NCBI GenBank assembly: GCA_963729045.1
Contig: CAVSMN010000021.1
Coordinates: 120,888-184,887 of the forward strand
Reading direction: 5' to 3'
DNA length: 64,000 nucleotides
Source: an uncultured Nitrososphaeraceae archaeon
Lineage (GTDB): Archaea > Thermoproteota > Nitrososphaeria > Nitrososphaerales > Nitrososphaeraceae
Shown one piece after another: positions 7,637 through 18,139 of this stretch; the stretch's first letter is position 1; every line of letters starts with the position of its first letter. The notes beneath the pieces are model-generated. The model was not told where the DNA came from and did no database searches. It worked only from the letters and a program-made list of their open reading frames with translations. Made by a program: the position numbers and the translations under genes.

Positions 7637-7864
7637 ATGGTATCTAAGAAAGTTACACCAAAGGATGATAAGAAAGGATTAGCATCTGCTGATAAGGAAA
7701 CACAAAAGAAGGTCGCAAGTAAAGGCGGAAAGGCCAAAGCCAAGGCCACTAGTACAAAGGCCACTAGTACAAAGGCCACTAGTACAAAGGCCACTAGTAC
7801 AAAGGCCACTAGTACAAAGGCCACTAGTCCTAAGAAGACCAGTGGCAGTGCTAAGAAAAAATAA
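7637..7864 (+). CDS. Small Lys-rich KGG-motif stress protein with KATST repeats
   Basis: GLASADKETQKKVASKGGKA resembles the KGG stress-induced motif; basic repetitive tail. Confidence 0.75.
   Translation: MVSKKVTPKDDKKGLASADKETQKKVASKGGKAKAKATSTKATSTKATSTKATSTKATSTKATSPKKTSGSAKKK
7742..7828 (+). repeat. 15-bp tandem repeat aaggccactagtaca (5 full copies + 1 partial)
   Basis: Read directly; encodes KATST. Confidence 0.95.
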
Positions 7865-8598: not shown

Positions 8599-9147
8599 TC
8601 ATAATATTAATACTGCCGCACTAACTACCGTTGTCCATAGACCATCCTTGTTTCCTGCAGCTGACTGGGTGAAATTTTGTGTTTTGTAAATCTTTCCTGA
8701 AAGTTTCCATTGTTCTTCGTTTTGATCCCATGAAAGTGTTGGATCAGTGGGTAATCCGATTGTTGTGGCAAGCATTTCCATGGCCAAATCCTCTGCATAA
8801 TCTCCGGCCTTCGAAGCTGTTTCTCCAGTTGAGTGGTGTTCTGACAAATACCCATATTGAGCATCATCTGCTGGCCTAGCTAATCCAATGGATGCGGCAA
8901 TTAGTCTGTTTGGCTCATTAGTAGCTGATCTCGCCATTACCGTAAAAACAATTTGTCCTGGTTTCAGATATCTTCTGCCTTCTCCTCTATTTACTATCTT
9001 GCACTGTGGTGGTTTGATACTAGATACCGATACCAAATTCAGATCGCTTATCGAAGCATCACGTAAGGCAAGTTCAAAGCTAGTGAGATAATCTTTGTGG
9101 GTGCCTCTACCTTTAGTAAAAAACATAATTTTCGGAATATATGCCAT
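8599..9147 (-). CDS. pdaD: Pyruvoyl-dependent arginine decarboxylase
   Basis: FFTKGRG...SFELALRDASI...NLVSVSSI (Ser-Ser self-cleavage site), GYLSEH, WTTV; start set at MAYIP (ORF extends to 9195). Confidence 0.92.
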   Translation of the reverse strand: MAYIPKIMFFTKGRGTHKDYLTSFELALRDASISDLNLVSVSSIKPPQCKIVNRGEGRRYLKPGQIVFTVMARSATNEPNRLIAASIGLARPADDAQYGYLSEHHSTGETASKAGDYAEDLAMEMLATTIGLPTDPTLSWDQNEEQWKLSGKIYKTQNFTQSAAGNKDGLWTTVVSAAVLIL

Positions 9148-9763
9148 AGGGTCTGACAATGGTATTTTTTTGCAAAGTTCATTCTCTCCAACCATCTCTA
9201 GACAAGTTGTGTAAAGGATAGGATAAAAACATGATTTTTGAATTGATCGATTGATTAACCGTCTCTAAGATGTATAGATTTTTTTGCCTTATAGATACAT
9301 CGACTTACCTATACACATGTAATAAAGATCCAAGAAATTGTTATTTGACAATGTAAATCGGGTTTTAGACTTTAGAATGGACTCTAATTAATGATAAAGT
9401 TAAGAATCCAGGTGGTTGATATTTTTTTGCATTATCATCTTTGAACTTGGTATTATATATGCACAGAATTTTTATGGTAATCTTATCAATGAATCCATGT
9501 ATATAACTAGGAAAGTGTGATCCATTCTATTTTCTCAATTATCATTACTTTTACCGATCACGTTATTCATTGAAAATTCTGAATTGATCACCTTATACAA
9601 TGGAGTCATATTGAGGATTTGTTATTGATGATTTACCAGCCTAATATCGGTACATCTCAATATCGCAGTGAATGGTGATTTTTCTCAATTTACATCAAAC
9701 AGAGTTATGTATCAACGCTTTCCACTAATAAGATTAAAATATATAATAGTGAACTTTGATTTA

Positions 9764-10636
9764 GTGGCAAAAGTCATAGCATTCCATTCGTACAAAGGCG
9801 GAACAGGTAAAACCACTTTAGCAGTAAACCTTTCTGCAAACCTGGCGTCAAAGGGATACCATGTTTTACTTGTTGATATGGATGTCTATGCTCCAAGCTT
9901 ATATGTTTATTTCAATATTCAACCCAAGAAATGGATTAATGATTACTTGAATGATAAAATTACCTTTTGTGATTCCATTTATGATTTCTCTCATGTATTG
10001 AAAGAATTTAATTCAAACACGCAGATTAACGATATAAAAGGCTCCTTTCATGCTGTTTTTTCTAATCCATCAAAGAAAGAAATAACCGATTTAGATTCCG
10101 TTATGAGGAAGGATTCATCAAAGTCTCACATGTTAAAAAAAATGTTATTTTTAAAAGAAACAGGTATTACAGTTACAGACTATGATTATATCATTCTGGA
10201 TACAAGTCCGGGTATTCGATATTGGTCAATTAATTCCTTGGCCATTTCGGATACTATCTTTTTGTCACTAAAGATGGATAATATAGACGTGGAAGGTACT
10301 AAACATATGGCTATGGATGTGTATGGTTCTTTTACAAGTTATGGAACTAGATCTTATTTGTTGTTGAATAGAGTTGCAGGCTATTGCGAGCCTCCAGTAA
10401 CCCTTGATACAGGTAACTCTAAGTATGGTGAAAATATTTCTTCTTTTAGGTCTTTGCTATTAGAACAAAATGAAACAATTAATAATTTGGAAAAGTTAAT
10501 AAAAATGGATGTAGTTTCGATGATCCCTTGTTATTGTGATATGCAATTTGAAAGACAGGAATATTTAACTGTCTTAAAAAATCCAAATCACCCTTTTTCA
10601 AAGAAAGTCGATGAATTATCAAAGAAAATCGAATAG
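9764..10636 (+). CDS. MinD/ParA-family ATPase
   Basis: Deviant Walker A KGGTGKTT, VDMD, ILDTSPG; start set at GTG 9764 (ORF opens at 9668). Confidence 0.9.
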   Translation: MAKVIAFHSYKGGTGKTTLAVNLSANLASKGYHVLLVDMDVYAPSLYVYFNIQPKKWINDYLNDKITFCDSIYDFSHVLKEFNSNTQINDIKGSFHAVFSNPSKKEITDLDSVMRKDSSKSHMLKKMLFLKETGITVTDYDYIILDTSPGIRYWSINSLAISDTIFLSLKMDNIDVEGTKHMAMDVYGSFTSYGTRSYLLLNRVAGYCEPPVTLDTGNSKYGENISSFRSLLLEQNETINNLEKLIKMDVVSMIPCYCDMQFERQEYLTVLKNPNHPFSKKVDELSKKIE

Positions 10637-10737
10637 TTCTCATATCAAATCCGAGCTGTTGAGGATCGCTTAGTCTCAAAGCTCATAGGCCTCCTCAAAG
10701 GAAAAAAAGAAATATCTACCTAACATAGTAATGTTAG

Positions 10738-12162
10738 ATGAAACATTTCCCTGGTAATGACATAATAGGTAGAAACCTACAGCGACCTGATCTTGGAGTG
10801 TATCTAATTTCTGGGCCAAAGTTATCGGGAAAATTACACTATTGCAATAATTTTATATTAAATGGCCTGACAGACGGGGTTTTTTGTATTTGTATCAGCT
10901 CTTCATTCATAGAAAAAAAATATAAAAGCATTTTTTTTCCGGGGTTGGAGAGCTTGTGTCTTAATTTGACAGTGTTAAATCCATATACATTAAAGGGATA
11001 TGATGGAGCCAGTTTTGAAAATAGTCAAGCGCTCACACATCTTTTTGAAGAGGTTAGACAAATAATTGAAACCCAACTAAATCGACCTGTTTACTTTGTG
11101 TTAAGTTCATTGACTAACTTTCTAGAAAATTTTAACGATCAAGATGTAACCAAATTTGTAACTAGTTTGGTCTTTCTGCTCAAAAACCATGAGGTAAATT
11201 CAATATTTTCTATTGATAGCACAGACCCCAATTCATCCATATTTATTAACAAAATAGCACATCTTTTTGACGGACTATTTGAAACTAAGTTACCTTCAGA
11301 TTCTTCTCAGTCGCAAAAGTACATAAAACTAGTATCTATGTTTGGGAATACTAAATGTAAATCAGATTGGATAAATTATACACTGGACGATAACAATATC
11401 ATAACATCTATTAGTAATCAAACTAGACTAATTTGCAATTTATGTAAGGAACAGATTGATGAATCTCCAGTATTCTATCAAGAACTTTCTTTTCATCAGG
11501 AACATTTAGCCATTTACATGAAATTAGTTAATTTTTACGGAAATTCTAAAATTGCAGAATTTGGATCATCTGGAATTTTATATACAAATTTCTTCTTTAT
11601 TGATATAGTTGGATTGTCAGATCCTTCTCTGTCGGTCAAAAATCAGATAGAAAAGATCCAGATACTAAATAATTTGATCAATTCGTGTAATTCTTATAAA
11701 AAGGACCGAGAGAAGAAAATTCTTCCTACTGGAGATGGTATGGCGATCGGTTTCTTAACCGATCCTAAACTACCTGTAGAATTAAGTCTGGAACTTCACA
11801 AAAAACTAGGAATACATAATTCAAATTCATCAAATCAATCTATAATACAAGTGCGAATTGGAATTGGTTCGGGACATGTTTTTATAGTCAATGATTTGAA
11901 TGATAATCAAAATTTATGGGGTCCAGGTATAATACTTGCTAGGAGAGTTATGGATTTAGGCGATCAAGGTCACATATTGATCGAAGGAAGTTTTGCAAAT
12001 AACTTATTTAGTATTGACAGTGAATTAAAGAAAGACATACATTATCTCGGGAATTACAGTATAAAACACAACCAAAAAATTGATGTTTATTCCCTATATA
12101 ATCAGTACGCCGGCAATGCAGAAATTCCACAAAAATTTTTAGATTTACCTAAATCCATTTGA
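10738..12162 (+). CDS. Multidomain protein: degenerate KaiC/RAD55-like domain + LIM-like Zn finger + class III adenylate/guanylate cyclase domain
   Basis: LISGPKLSGK, FVLSSL, HLFDGLFE (KaiC-like); CNLC-x16-HQEH; FIDIVGLS, TGDGM, VRIGIGSG, WGPGIILARRVMD, IKH (cyclase). Confidence 0.8.
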   Translation: MKHFPGNDIIGRNLQRPDLGVYLISGPKLSGKLHYCNNFILNGLTDGVFCICISSSFIEKKYKSIFFPGLESLCLNLTVLNPYTLKGYDGASFENSQALTHLFEEVRQIIETQLNRPVYFVLSSLTNFLENFNDQDVTKFVTSLVFLLKNHEVNSIFSIDSTDPNSSIFINKIAHLFDGLFETKLPSDSSQSQKYIKLVSMFGNTKCKSDWINYTLDDNNIITSISNQTRLICNLCKEQIDESPVFYQELSFHQEHLAIYMKLVNFYGNSKIAEFGSSGILYTNFFFIDIVGLSDPSLSVKNQIEKIQILNNLINSCNSYKKDREKKILPTGDGMAIGFLTDPKLPVELSLELHKKLGIHNSNSSNQSIIQVRIGIGSGHVFIVNDLNDNQNLWGPGIILARRVMDLGDQGHILIEGSFANNLFSIDSELKKDIHYLGNYSIKHNQKIDVYSLYNQYAGNAEIPQKFLDLPKSI

Positions 12163-12485
12163 TACATTCTATATTATCACCCCTAAATCTTCAAATTCTT
12201 AATTGTTAAATAACCAATAGCATCCTTATGGAATCCATTTCCTATTGCTGGCTACATTTTATGCTAACCAAATTTAGTAATACTGTTTCTTTTTAAAGGC
12301 TTGTCTTTAAACAATTACAATTATTGGCGATAATCCAATTTTTATTGCTCGTATTAGTACCCTCATATCCTCTTTACCTAAGAATAATGGTCTTCCTTTT
12401 TTGTGAGGGACCTCTTAACAGATATTAATTGCATATCAGTCATTCTTGAGAATGTTTTTATATCTTTACCATACCAAAAACCTGT

Positions 12486-12749
12486 ATGGCTATTTTTCTT
12501 GATGTTCATAAAGTGCCATTTAAAGAAGAAAATCTCCAAGAGCTGGTTAAGGCTCCCATAGACGAATATGGGGTCACACACGTCAACTTATTCTACAATA
12601 TGGAAGCTGGTGTATGTTTTTGTTTATTAAGTGCTCCCGATAAAGAAGCCGTAATTAAGCATCACGATAAGGTTAACATAGAATGTGAATGGATTACAGA
12701 AGTTAGTATGGCAACAGGTAATGAATCCCTAAAATTTACCACCAAGTGA
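12486..12749 (+). CDS. DUF4242 (SCO4226-like nickel-binding) protein
   Basis: MAIFLDVH...GV...FCLLSAPDKEAVIKHH...WITEV pattern. Confidence 0.8.
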   Translation: MAIFLDVHKVPFKEENLQELVKAPIDEYGVTHVNLFYNMEAGVCFCLLSAPDKEAVIKHHDKVNIECEWITEVSMATGNESLKFTTK

Positions 12750-12908
12750 ACTTGTTTATATGCATAAGATTAACTTGGGGTAAAAATCGGGTGTTAGAAT
12801 AATGGAAATTGACATAAAAACAAAACAAAGAACCTTATCAATTATTTAAAATTTGTTACCTTCGGGTTCCATTAGAAGGTAAATTTGAAAAGATAATCTT
12901 ATATTCGT

Positions 12909-14046
12909 ATGTGGGTTAATAACCTTAAGTTATTAAAAATGCCCACAGGTTCTGGCATAAAGGAAGTCAATGTAAAATATACCCTTGATGAATCCATTAA
13001 TCTTATACTTAAAATATTTTCTAATACCGAGCAGCATTTGGAAATAATTATAGATCATGATTGGTTATGCCATTTAGTGGAGTATTCATCAATTCTTACA
13101 TTCTTCAGGAAATTGAAATTGCGCAATATCGACATCAAGATCGTAGTCGAAATTGACAAGAAGAGCGCAAATTATTCTAAGCGTCTAATGAAATTTTCTG
13201 ATATAAGACATTCAGATAATCTAGAGGGGTGCAGCTTTAGAAACGAGCACTCATATTGTTTCTGCCACTTCTCTGAAAATGGATTAAGCGATCTGGAACA
13301 AGAAATCGAGCCACTGGAGAAATTGACTCAATTCTTTTACGTGGATAACAGGAATTTTGTCAAACAACAAGATTCTTTATTTAAGCATCTATGGGGTGAT
13401 TCCGTTCCAGCAAGGGAAAAAATAACAGAAATTGAAAAAAGCGTAATGGAGGTCATACTAAACCATGAACCCCAGTCAGAAATAGATGTCAATTCAAGTG
13501 AAATACTTTTTCGGATTGTGGAATCTTGTGTAGATCAAATACTAATCTTAATTCCCTCAACTAATCTCTTTTGGGATTTTTACAATAGCAATCTGTTTGT
13601 CTCAATCTCAAAGATGTTAGTCAAAGACGTGACGGTAAAGATCCTAATTCACTTGGAAGAAGGACAAACGGCCGTAAAGGATGAAATACGATATAAACTC
13701 AAGGAACTATCTCAGGATTTGGACATTAATACTAATTTTTTCTCCAAAAAAATTCCTCAATTACATCTATCAATAATTGTGGACAATGTTGTTTTGGTAG
13801 AAATTGATTACGGGAACGAAGGATCTGTTCTTTCAACAAAAGAACTTGACCCAATGAGTGTCCTTTTCCATTAGTGATACTCGGGTATCGTCCTCAACTT
13901 CAGTATTTGACATTTTGTGGATACAGTCTGATTTTGAAAGACAAAAAAAGATTAAACAAACCTATTTTGATATTTTTAAAGGATTTAATATGAAAAGCGA
14001 GAATTATAGTAGAGATTGGAATTTTGAAAAAAAAAGTAACAAATAA
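12909..14046 (+). CDS. Hypothetical sensor-like protein with two TrmB/PLD-fold-like repeats; one frameshift near 13860
   Basis: Two similar modules ending FKHLW and FDILW; resembles N-terminal regions of Nitrososphaeraceae histidine kinases; ORFs 12909..13874 and 13858..14046 overlap. Confidence 0.55.
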
Positions 14047-14349
14047 TCTAACTTCTATGCCCTATAATATTCTTTTAAATAACATCCTTCGTTCGTTTTT
14101 TTCATATTGATTGAAACATTGATTAGATTTCTAGAATCTAACTATTTTGCCTACTATTAGGATGTTTCTACTAATGGGCTCATACCAGTGCTTCTATTCT
14201 CAAAGAATTCAGACGTTTTCTATCATGTCTACAAATCAATAGTATAACAAGATATGCATGCAGGTAAATTTATCAATATTTTTTGATAATTTATTTCGTT
14301 TATTTAATGATCAATGAAATTTAAATTAATGAAATAAACAAGGGGAGAG

Positions 14350-15333
14350 TTAAACGAAATTAAACTGTATTTTTATTCCATCATGATCGTAAACATAAAA
14401 TGAAGAATTTTGGTGGAAATCTGAATCAAGTATCTTTTCATCCATCGATATGCCATTATTAATGAGGTGGTTTTTGAATGAGTCTTTCTCTTTTTTGTTA
14501 TTAGGTATCTGGATTGCAAAATGGTCTAGTCCTACTTTACTCAAGTCATTTGCACTATTAGGTAGGATGTTTGTCCCAATCCAAGTATTTGTGGCAATGT
14601 GATGATGATATCTATCTGCGGCAAAAAAATGGGCTCCTGGATACGAAGCAGTATGGTAAAGTCCAATCATATCTTGATAGAATTTCTTGGCTTTAGTAAG
14701 GTTTGATACGTGTAAATGAACGTGACCTATCGATGTTTTCTTAGGAAGACCATTCCATGCTCCATAACTTTCATGATTTAATAAATCCTTGACATCGAGT
14801 GATTCTGTTACCATGTGTATTTTGTTCGCATCAGTCCATATCCATTCAGATGGTAGCCTATCATGGTAAACCTCGATCCCGTTATTATCGGGGTCGTGGA
14901 GATATAAAGACTCAGAGACGGCGTGGTCGGCCAAACCTTCATAGTATCGTGGATCGAGATTTTTCTTAATGTGCTGGAGAAATGATGCTAAAAATTTTCT
15001 TTCAGGCAGTAATATGGCAAAATGATAAAGCCCTGCCTCTCTTTTTGTTAGGCTGGGATTACTCGAAACACTACTATTGACACTATCTATCTGACTCAAG
15101 ACTAGCAATGATGAATTCTCATCCTGTCCAGGCTCACGAGAACCAAGACATACTATATTTTCTTTTGGTTTGTTTTCTAATATCTTAAATCCTAAAATGG
15201 ATTGGTAAAAATCTATGGAATTCTGTAAATTAGAGACTTTTAGGTGAACATGATCAATCTTTAAAGATGGGCTGGCGATAAATCTATTTTCTTCATCATT
15301 ATTACTATATTTACTATTATCACTATCATTCAT
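14350..15333 (-). CDS. VOC family protein, CatE-like catechol 2,3-dioxygenase/glyoxalase
   Basis: HVHLKVS, GLYHFAILLP, DHAVSESLYLHDPDNNGIEVY, IGHVHLHV, YHHHIATNTW. Confidence 0.88.
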   Translation of the reverse strand: MNDSDNSKYSNNDEENRFIASPSLKIDHVHLKVSNLQNSIDFYQSILGFKILENKPKENIVCLGSREPGQDENSSLLVLSQIDSVNSSVSSNPSLTKREAGLYHFAILLPERKFLASFLQHIKKNLDPRYYEGLADHAVSESLYLHDPDNNGIEVYHDRLPSEWIWTDANKIHMVTESLDVKDLLNHESYGAWNGLPKKTSIGHVHLHVSNLTKAKKFYQDMIGLYHTASYPGAHFFAADRYHHHIATNTWIGTNILPNSANDLSKVGLDHFAIQIPNNKKEKDSFKNHLINNGISMDEKILDSDFHQNSSFYVYDHDGIKIQFNFV

Positions 15334-16970: not shown

Positions 16971-18139
16971 TTAGACCTTATCACTCGAACTATTGATAAC
17001 CGGCCATTTTTCCTTACGTAATGAACCCATCACGGTGTGATTCAGATTGAGATGAGCTTGTACAAGTTCTTTGGGCGTCAAAGCCATCCACTGATTTAGC
17101 GAAATATCTTGAAAGCGAGAACTTTTAAACATCTCCAGGAAACGCAATGGTTTATCACCAATATTTTCGATATAGTGACCCATCGCAAATGGGACATACC
17201 CGACATCGCCAGCCTGGTAGTCAAAAGTCCGTGCTTTACCTTCTGATGCAAATACTCCCATTCGGGCAGAACCTTCAATATAATATTGCCATTCATCAGT
17301 ATTTGGATGCCAATGCATCTCTCGCATCCCTCCTGGCTTGACCTCCACAAGTCCTGCCGCTATGTTGGTTGCTTCTGGGAAATTGGACGAATCGACCAGA
17401 CGAACCGTACCACCACTAGTCGCCAATGGATCTTGATTCAGAAAATGATAGCTAAAAGATCTTTGTCCCTGATTGCTGACAATCTTGTCAGATGCTAATG
17501 GTCCAGGTATCTCGGTAGGAAACATGTACGTACTTGTGATCAAGTTCGTGCATCGGAATATTGGCGAATTCGATCATTTGCAAGCCAAAATTCTTTCCTA
17601 GTACTTCTTTGGGGGTATGGGCAAACCAATCGGTAATGAGAAACGTTGAATCTTCAGAAAAGTTGCCATCATCAAAAACGAGGAGAAACTCGCAGCCTTC
17701 TTCTAATCCTTGGATCGAATGAGGAATACCGGGAGGAAAATACCATATATCTCCAGTACCTACATCGTCTAAGAAGTTACAACCATCTTGGTCAACTGCA
17801 CTTATTCGTGCCCTTCCGTTGAGCATATACGCCCACTCCGCCTCCTTATGCCAGTGCAATTCGCGTACCCCTCCGGCATTTAACCGCATGTTAACGCCAG
17901 CGAGCGTCGTAGCGATAGGTAACTCTCTTGCTGTTACTTGTCGTGTCCATCCACCTTTCTGAAGTCGATTGTGTGCCAAAGAAAATGAAAATTTCAAATT
18001 CGGTAATGTACCTGAATCAGGTACTAGGTGGTGTAAGAATATCGGGGTTCTGACGGTCTAATTCTTTATTACGTGGACCAGGATCGGTTCCACCTGTATC
18101 AGGTCCAATAGGTTCTGGTATGGATCTTTCTGAGACCAT
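16971..18139 (-). pseudogene. oxdC: Oxalate decarboxylase (bicupin, OxdC-like) split by two frameshifts
   Basis: MVSERSIPEP...[13 protein letters not shown] (manual), [17 protein letters not shown] lid, REMHWHPNTDEWQY; extra base at about 18020 and 4-bp gtac duplication at about 17526-17533. Confidence 0.88.

Follow-up and report, generated by a model that had tools for sequence, protein, structure and literature searches.

We herein describe a cluster of four consecutive plus-strand genes in a 64,000-nucleotide (nt) stretch of DNA (contig CAVSMN010000021.1, positions 120,888 to 184,887; referred to as the window) from an uncultured Nitrososphaeraceae archaeon. The gene layout, first proposed from the bare sequence (the original prediction), was confirmed by the open reading frame (ORF) list and by family scans, and Pfam and Foldseek showed that the accompanying domain calls (ParA/MinD; KaiC-like/zinc/cyclase; DUF4242) were right (Table 1). 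The cluster is a real, uncharacterised and family-restricted signalling neighbourhood, in which a core pair encodes a ParA/MinD-family ATPase (ParA) and a fusion protein that joins a KaiC/FlaH-like domain to a C2H2 zinc knuckle and a divergent class III cyclase homology domain (CHD), and an accessory pair encodes a DUF4242 protein and a tandem PLD-fold protein. Judged from its sequence, the cluster is likely to be a putative second-messenger module, and the fusion protein would be a class III cyclase whose regulatory architecture is undescribed and whose gene keeps a conserved partner. Our best explanation, to which we give about an even chance, is that of a signalling neighbourhood of two separately transcribed gene pairs, restricted to Nitrososphaeraceae and acting by the mechanism proposed below; the genes, folds, conserved residues, linkage and co-occurrence on which it draws were observed directly.

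We placed the window proteins on 27 loci from 25 relatives (35-94% identity); in 25 of these loci ParA and the fusion gene share a strand and are 61-1046 nt apart, with ParA upstream in 22 and downstream in 3. Linkage of the genes holds across Nitrososphaeraceae, and both duplicated copies in genome G035, as well as both in G036, keep ParA. Of the two exceptions, locus L043 (genome G003) carries an insertion sequence (IS) DDE transposase ORF directly upstream of the fusion gene, its contig ends 1.8 kilobases (kb) further on, and the ParA orthologue of this genome lies on another contig; in L050 (G034) the fusion gene has no neighbouring ParA. DUF4242 lies within 2.2 kb of the core in 17/24 assessable loci, three loci ending within 400 nt having been left out of this count, and an orthologue of the PLD-fold sensor lies within 4 kb of the core in 16/23 assessable loci. 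The sensor gene has the opposite orientation in 8 loci, and the genes are arranged in three further orders. Of the 16 loci with both DUF4242 and the sensor gene, 14 have them 121-806 nt from each other. Among the 17 loci that we compared, no further gene family was common, except for a stand-alone REC gene in 4, located beside ParA (L038:8420-8791, L052:9546-9914, L053:1998-2417, L054:5515-5910); its position hints at a link to a phosphorelay, though REC genes of this kind abound in these archaea.

A survey of 61 genomes (the archaeon's own and those of 60 relatives, 37 in all belonging to the same family) revealed the full-length fusion in 26, all within the 37 same-family genomes, and a match to the cyclase domain only in 4 of the 24 genomes outside the family. 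Within the genus the distribution is patchy: 22 of 33 genomes have the fusion gene. With 60% identity as the lower limit, a DUF4242 orthologue was found in 25/26 fusion-bearing genomes, but intact in only 1 of the 11 same-family genomes without the fusion, with remnants in 2 more, and the sensor orthologue occurs in 23/26 versus 3/11, two of those three being broken. Moreover, two complete single-contig genomes (G012, G015) lack the fusion, DUF4242 and sensor genes altogether. Since the cluster recurs over 27 loci despite inversions and order swaps, and since presence and absence of its genes co-vary among the 37 genomes, it is more than a chance arrangement. The relatives fall into identity tiers of 82-94%, about 70%, 51-62% and 35-44%, which, along with the rearrangements, suggests that several lineages are represented.

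Each of the four genes is preceded, 17-47 nt before its start, by an invariant TATA-like block set in a variable spacer. Before ParA, TTAAAATA is invariant in 7/7 aligned loci with varying flanks; this block fits the promoter of a leaderless or near-leaderless mRNA and, lying 23-31 nt upstream, supports the GTG start at 9764. Before the fusion gene, GAAA.A.AGAAATAT.TA is invariant in 8/8 aligned loci and the remainder of the 101-nt ParA-fusion spacer is not conserved, making the block at 10700..10719 a candidate internal promoter. Before DUF4242, GAATGTTTTTATATCT.TA is invariant in 7/7 aligned loci, and the T-rich runs that follow the fusion gene are kept in 6. We read these blocks as four promoters, with read-through from ParA into the fusion gene being possible. 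A hairpin in the ParA-fusion spacer was dropped as a candidate because it is not conserved in relatives, and an Rfam scan of 9100-14400 returned zero matches at E<=1. Contigs from two soil RNA libraries match the cluster, those of X1 at 90-99% identity over ParA and the fusion gene and those of X2 at no less than 95% over ParA, the fusion gene and the sensor gene. DNA may be present in RNA libraries, and such contigs are no proof of transcripts. For the check across the gene junctions that had been proposed, they give a divided answer: one X1 contig (10564-10779) bridges the ParA-fusion spacer, but no X1 or X2 contig lies on DUF4242 or bridges 12199-12492, which is no evidence of silence. Contigs of X1 and X2 end at 12161 and 12162, a weak hint of a transcript end.

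The fusion protein (AlphaFold2 model, mean pLDDT 85.8) matches PF00211 with 27.5 bits against a cut-off of 21.9 and PF06745 (KaiC) with 23.5 bits, under the cut-off of 26.6. In Foldseek its N-terminal domain matched FlaH best (4yds, TMt 0.67), and also KaiC, and its C-terminal domain matched the CHD of Rv1900c best (TMt 0.80-0.82), along with other cyclases; the family profile gave 1.9e-16 against KaiC and 2.6e-8 against FlaH. With E<=1e-3 as the limit, the family has 1604 members of 260-830 amino acids (aa). Many of these carry automatic names, e.g., 'KaiC/GvpD/RAD55 family RecA-like ATPase/class 3 adenylate cyclase', some relatives are auto-annotated 'archaellum biogenesis ATPase FlaH', and a 92%-identical homologue is assigned by its source to Candidatus Nitrosocosmicus. 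The P-loop of the KaiC-like domain, G26-x4-G31-K32-L33 (GPKLSGKL), reads GKL in place of GK[ST], and the Walker B position reads VLSSLT, with Ser replacing Asp; this GKL/VLSSLT form marks the window's subclade, distant orthologues having GK[ST]/DSLT. Across the whole family the Glu-Glu of KaiC (FEE motif) aligns with Ser-Leu/Phe. Given these residues, the KaiC-like domain is here probably a nucleotide-binding or an inactive regulatory domain. In the zinc knuckle C233 is invariant and C236, H253 and H256 each recur in 90% or more of 52 sequences; three distant members have Cys and not His as the fourth ligand. In the model this region forms strands, followed by a helix from residue 254.

Residue roles in the CHD were assigned by alignment to 5oyh and 3mr7. 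The metal ligands D289 and D333 and the transition-state R403 are invariant in the 52 sequences, and the WGPGIILARRVMD block is nearly so. At the substrate-specifying positions, where ATP calls for Lys/Asp and GTP for Glu/Cys, L329 and N392 stand for the canonical Lys and Asp, and I399 occupies the position of the catalytic (transition-state) Asn; all three substitutions are present in at least 90% of the 52 family members. Thus, three of the six canonical cyclase residues are replaced, and the second-messenger synthesis of the original prediction stands as a hypothesis. Lys, Asp and Asn are all present in three further cyclase-domain proteins encoded by this genome. Rv1900c, according to Sinha and colleagues in 2005, is reportedly active despite the absence of the canonical Lys and Asn. 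Cyclase activity of the fusion protein is plausible. The closest CHD paralogues in the same genome, L002 (G000:C9), L003 (G000:C21:15108-18722) and L004 (G000:C10), have an N-terminal CHD, followed in all three by a common, unassigned region of about 260 aa and, in the longest, by a long C-terminal extension; all three CHDs lack the catalytic Asn. In relatives, a frameshift near aa 288 affects the fusion gene of G025 (L057), that of G019 (L048) has an in-frame TGA within the P-loop, and in G031 (L047), which holds the core pair only, the gene is split at aa 85/96.

ParA (Pfam AAA_31, 2.5e-24) has the deviant Walker A motif KGGTGKT, and its nearest solved relatives are Soj, ParA, MinD and FleN. 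In a 15-sequence alignment K11, G12, G13, T14, G15, K16 and T18 are invariant, T17 is kept in at least 90%, and the Walker A' D38/D40 and Walker B D146 are invariant too. By these motifs, the intact ATP switch of the cluster is ParA; in this genome the KaiC-like domain is not credible as the ATPase switch originally envisaged. C208, C256-x-C258 and H276 (GYCxP...PCYCDIQF...HPF) are likewise invariant in the same alignment, and this Cys3-His set may form a metal or redox site. The motif recurs in a ParA paralogue elsewhere in the archaeon's genome, and further paralogues at 42-49% identity occur in every genome of the genus. Members of this Nitrososphaeraceae subfamily with the motif are encoded at 9764-10636 of the window, at L064:3189-4043 and in G000:C15 (L065:3137-3850), and one ParA paralogue directly follows a split histidine kinase. 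A predicted complex of ParA with the fusion protein, the MinD:cyclase pairing proposed for modelling, reached an ipSAE of 0.40, the best of three controls reaching 0.00; at least 70% of the contacts agreed between runs and the partner pLDDT was 73 or more. In the calibration, 116/157 solved complexes and 2/215 mismatches attained the mark, and scores up to 0.60 held 18 of the 157 solved complexes together with both mismatches that passed. The model lends weak support to a predicted binding of ParA to the fusion protein.

The DUF4242 protein scores 48 bits against PF14026 (cut-off 28.5; 1.4e-12), and its orthologues are 66-97% identical where the fusion proteins are 35-94% identical. The invariant residues are H8, H32, C44, C46, H59, H60 and C67. 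A nickel-sensing role was considered, and PMC4186839 gives the Ni-1 ligands of SCO4226 as Asp43, Ser46 and His76; 0/3 of these are kept in the window protein, which reads N, A and T, and we rejected the nickel-sensor role on this ground. Against the NCBIfam equivalog NF033706 the protein scores 28 bits, the cut-off being 125. From the invariant Cys/His residues, another metal or redox site may be present. The library search yielded 215 proteins at E<=1e-3, and 15 long ones among the best 150 of these were scanned: 10, of about 300-400 aa, are kinases of DUF4242-HisKA(-HATPase_c) architecture, 3 carry DUF4242 in tandem, and a cyclase domain, as in the DUF4242-cyclase fusion of the original prediction, is present in none. 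A word-based search for longer forms, a weak one, found nothing either. One DUF4242-kinase cluster is named as coming from Nitrososphaera. Possibly, the claim of a cyclase fusion stems from database names, as a figure legend in PMC4186839 mentions DUF4242 homologues that NCBI named 'gualylate cyclase'. By these kinase architectures, the DUF4242 protein is a free-standing copy of a histidine-kinase input domain.

The fourth gene is read in the window as two pieces, which in 16/16 relatives' loci holding both fall in one stop-to-stop frame and align as one protein. DNA alignment revealed one extra base at ~13856-13857 in the window relative to 4/4 close relatives. The ATG at 12939 matches the 'MP..GIKEV' start of the relatives, the upstream ATG at 12909 being open as well, and the 3' part, out of frame here, is the most conserved stretch of the family (FDxLWIQSD.E.Q.K.KQTYF..FKG). 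The insertion may be a real frameshift or an assembly error, the latter because a bicupin gene and several kinase genes elsewhere in the assembly are also in pieces; public-run contigs do not usefully cover 13816-13860. The bicupin gene (window 16971-17997, minus strand) consists of two overlapping cupin ORFs of 190 and 169 aa, split here by a single-base frame change and contiguous in L035, L036, L039 and L057. Family scans gave zero matches for the fourth protein. Its AlphaFold2 model is of moderate quality (mean pLDDT 67.3, the C-terminal 60 aa being poor), and in Foldseek it resembles PLD3 (E 3.6e-8), F13, Pss (phosphatidylserine synthase) and TrmBL2, indicating a duplicated PLD-like fold. 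The HKD motif (HxKxxxxD) is absent from the protein, and the near-invariant alignment columns hold none. In the archaeon's genome 3/3 long paralogues tested carry the domain as the N-terminal ~340 aa of kinases with HisKA and HATPase_c, just as the label 'kinase-less sensor' had implied, a stand-alone paralogue passes the Pfam PLDc_2 cut-off, and genomes of the genus hold 2-23 family matches each. By its paralogues, the fourth protein too is a free-standing copy of a histidine-kinase input domain.

Given these features, we postulate that ParA would act as an ATP-dependent dimer switch together with the three-part fusion protein, the KaiC/FlaH-like domain of which would serve as its oligomerisation or nucleotide-binding part. 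The free sensor proteins and the ParA-type ATPase would bind the fusion protein, and this binding would set its oligomeric state and thereby control the head-to-tail dimerisation of the CHD, which in turn would convert a nucleoside triphosphate, its base left unspecified, into a cyclic-nucleotide messenger. Binding, cyclase chemistry and the direction of signal flow are what we infer here. We also speculate, as a quite unlikely extension, that the Leu/Asn/Ile CHD could make a non-canonical nucleotide messenger, gated by a ParA with a Cys3-His metal or redox site and by two free sensors; if true, the regulatory logic of such a pathway would be undescribed in all domains of life.

Several observations weigh against the explanation that we favour. 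The related genomes are close kin and not independent, so the counts overstate the support. Not every locus has all four genes together: L038, L047, L049, L052 and L055 hold the core pair only, the DUF4242-sensor pair of G034 lies on a different contig from the fusion gene, and DUF4242 of G011 lies at a distance of about 11 kb. Broken copies are frequent, of the fusion gene in G025, G031 and G019 and of the sensor gene in the window, G024 and G029; this suggests either a dispensable module or error-prone assemblies. Separate TATA-like blocks before every gene, and oligo-T runs between the fusion gene and DUF4242, make a joint transcript of the four genes unlikely, and the one module originally predicted stands as recurring linkage and as two pairs, but probably not as a single operon. 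The score of the ParA-fusion model falls within the 'weak' band. In the KaiC-like domain the Thr/Ser of Walker A and the Asp of Walker B are missing here and the Glu-Glu is missing throughout the family, and the CHD has Leu/Asn/Ile at canonical Lys/Asp/Asn positions that other CHDs of the same genome retain. Moreover, no receptor or effector is encoded in the cluster. Because the P-loop and Walker B of the KaiC-like domain are substituted and the sensor gene is frameshifted (possibly by an assembly error), the module looks partly degenerate in this genome.

These points leave room for narrower readings. Only ParA and the fusion protein might form a functional unit, with the DUF4242 and PLD-fold proteins being a separate sensor pair, neighbours by shared descent, that signals elsewhere (e.g., to REC proteins or kinases); we consider this tenable but well short of evenly probable. 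Separate promoter-like blocks and terminator-like T runs between the pairs would fit it, as would the 7/24 assessable loci in which the core lacks DUF4242, the close spacing of the two accessory genes to each other (14/16 loci with both, 121-806 nt), and the DUF4242-sensor pairs on contigs without an intact fusion gene in G034, G002, G022, G008 and G027. However, linkage of the pairs outlives both sensor inversion and three different gene orders, and DUF4242 follows the fusion gene closely (25/26 versus 1/11). In G002, which has an intact ParA-fusion pair on contig C120, a decayed N-terminal fusion fragment with 6 stops (G002:C93:11860-12318, minus strand) still adjoins the intact DUF4242-sensor pair. 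The CHD, for its part, might not be a nucleotide cyclase but a pseudo-enzyme (for nucleotide binding or dimerisation) or a catalyst of other nucleotidyl transfer. This we rate as unlikely, if worth serious attention: Leu329, Asn392 and Ile399 prevail in at least 90% of the 52 members, the closest paralogues L002 and L003 also lack the Asn, and more canonical CHDs exist in the same genome, but both metal Asp and the Arg are invariant and WGPGIILARRVMD nearly so, which is unusual for dead enzymes, and the best structural match is Rv1900c.

Two further explanations were weighed. MinD- and FlaH-type proteins position or assemble archaella and pili, and the ParA/MinD and FlaH/KaiC-like pair might likewise position or assemble a surface or cytoskeletal structure, the CHD being a regulatory appendage. 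The best N-terminal structural match to FlaH and the FlaH annotation of relatives agree with this, as do ATPases of the KaiC family and of the FleN/MinD-like type, which PMC4858521 reports in the vicinity of archaeal type IV pilus loci. Yet no pilin, ArlI/ArlJ or secretion ATPase is common to the 17 loci, in which only signalling-type families recur, and we regard this explanation as very improbable. We hold a defence system against viruses, of the cyclase-plus-effector kind and with a nuclease effector in the form of the PLD-fold protein, to be extremely improbable, although PLD-fold nucleases occur in defence systems and the patchy distribution in the genus, the duplications, the frequent breakage and the IS element beside one copy would suit it. 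PADLOC gave zero matches for the fusion and DUF4242 proteins, a P-loop-level match only for ParA (PDC-M28B, 4.2e-8, residues 3-46) and 0.007 for the PLD-fold protein. The latter has no HKD motif and 2-23 family matches per genome, its 3/3 long paralogues being kinases, and the genes flanking the cluster are of housekeeping type, with no defence island in the family scans.

Table 1. Features of the four-gene cluster and its surroundings (positions in the window)
Feature	Position	Strand	Remark
ParA/MinD-family ATPase gene	9764..10636	+	290 aa, GTG start
Fusion protein gene (KaiC/FlaH-like + zinc knuckle + CHD)	10738..12162	+	474 aa
KaiC/FlaH-like domain, aa 20-221	10795..11400	+	PF06745 / family profile
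Zinc-knuckle linker C233-x2-C236-x16-H253-x2-H256	11434..11505	+	
Class III cyclase homology domain (CHD), aa 280-455	11575..12102	+	PF00211 match = residues 286-453
DUF4242/SCO4226-like protein gene	12486..12749	+	87 aa, ATG start
Fourth gene, 5' part	12939..13856	+	ORF as read = 12909/12939-13874
1-nt insertion splitting the fourth gene	13855..13857	+	DNA alignment, 4/4 close relatives
Fourth gene, 3' part	13858..14046	+	62-aa ORF, other frame
TATA-like block (TTAAAATATATAA) before ParA	9734..9746	+	18-30 nt upstream of GTG
Purine-rich + AAATATCTAC block before the fusion gene	10700..10719	+	19-38 nt upstream of ATG
TATA-like block (GAGAATGTTTTTATATCTTTAC) before DUF4242	12448..12469	+	17-38 nt upstream of ATG
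TATA-like block (GATAATCTTATAT) before the fourth gene	12892..12904	+	Invariant, 7/7 aligned loci
Oligo-T run (TTTCTTTTT), candidate archaeal terminator	12286..12294	+	~125 nt past fusion stop
Second oligo-T run after the fusion gene	12397-12402	+	

Upstream of the cluster, the window encodes at 7637-7864 (plus strand) a 75-aa Lys-rich protein with a 'KATST' repeat run of five exact copies, which is found at 75-97% identity in four relatives and adjoins a gene for a 104-aa winged-helix-like protein. The archaeon's own genome holds 16 PF00211 matches (about 14 loci) and a single cyclic-nucleotide (cNMP)-binding domain, fused to a pyridine-nucleotide-disulphide oxidoreductase (G000:C1; L067:9333-11003, minus strand), i.e., many cyclases and very few recognisable cNMP receptors; these matches place the cluster in a cyclic-nucleotide context, in favour of the explanation that we prefer. 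A second sensor-cyclase association is present on contig C8 (L066:3843-9640, minus strand), where a histidine kinase with the same PLD-type sensor, a REC protein, a cyclase that keeps the canonical Lys/Asp/Asn, a second REC protein and MASE3/HisKA/HATPase_c pieces form an array, the last kinase being split into overlapping ORFs.

Soil ammonia oxidisers of the Nitrososphaeraceae drive nitrification, and to our knowledge almost nothing is known of how they sense their environment. The pairing of ParA with a KaiC-like/cyclase protein offers a concrete, testable way into archaeal nucleotide signalling and bears on the proposed 'KaiC-like hub' idea, and, as the accessory proteins show, these archaea employ one set of sensor domains in two forms, as parts of kinases and as separate proteins. 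A comparative-genomics study (PMC13577086) names class III cyclases, giving no more detail, among the Nitrososphaeraceae-specific genes, with extra copies specific to Nitrosocosmicus. Our search of the full-text literature, which did not cover the 2017 KaiC-hub paper that may mention the fusion, yielded no description of the fusion or of the cluster.

Compared with known systems, the fusion protein shares the CHD fold, both metal Asp and the catalytic Arg with class III cyclases such as Rv1900c, Ma1120 and CyaB, in which the regulatory domains are also N-terminal, but its regulator is a RecA fold of the FlaH/KaiC-like type with a zinc knuckle, it has Leu/Asn/Ile for Lys/Asp/Asn, and it comes with a conserved ParA/MinD partner gene; we found the combination of KaiC-like domain, zinc knuckle and CHD described only in automatic source annotations. 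Archaeal KaiC-like/FlaH (ArlH) ATPases have reportedly been proposed as signalling hubs (by Makarova, Galperin and Koonin, in 2017), and here, too, an output domain is attached to one KaiC-like domain of RecA fold amid signalling genes; unlike KaiC, the family lacks the Glu-Glu, no KaiB-like gene is present and the output is a CHD. The window ParA resembles ParA, Soj, MinD and FleN in its KGGTGKT motif and its Walker A' and Walker B aspartates. Unlike ParA/MinD systems, no ParB, MinE or MinC is among the shared families of the 17 loci; instead, it belongs to a family-specific subfamily with three invariant Cys and one His, pairs with a KaiC-CHD protein and has paralogues adjoining other signalling genes. 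The DUF4242 protein is of the same Pfam family and length as SCO4226, but differs from it by D43->N, S46->A and H76->T (numbering from PMC4186839), by its own invariant Cys/His set and by having histidine kinases as its nearest fused relatives. Finally, the fourth protein shares a tandem PLD-like fold with the ligand-binding domains of the TrmB type and PLD clan but, unlike TrmB-type proteins, lacks a DNA-binding helix-turn-helix; its paralogue modules serve as N-terminal kinase inputs, and its orthologues have at the C-terminus a tail of about 60 aa that is unique and highly conserved.

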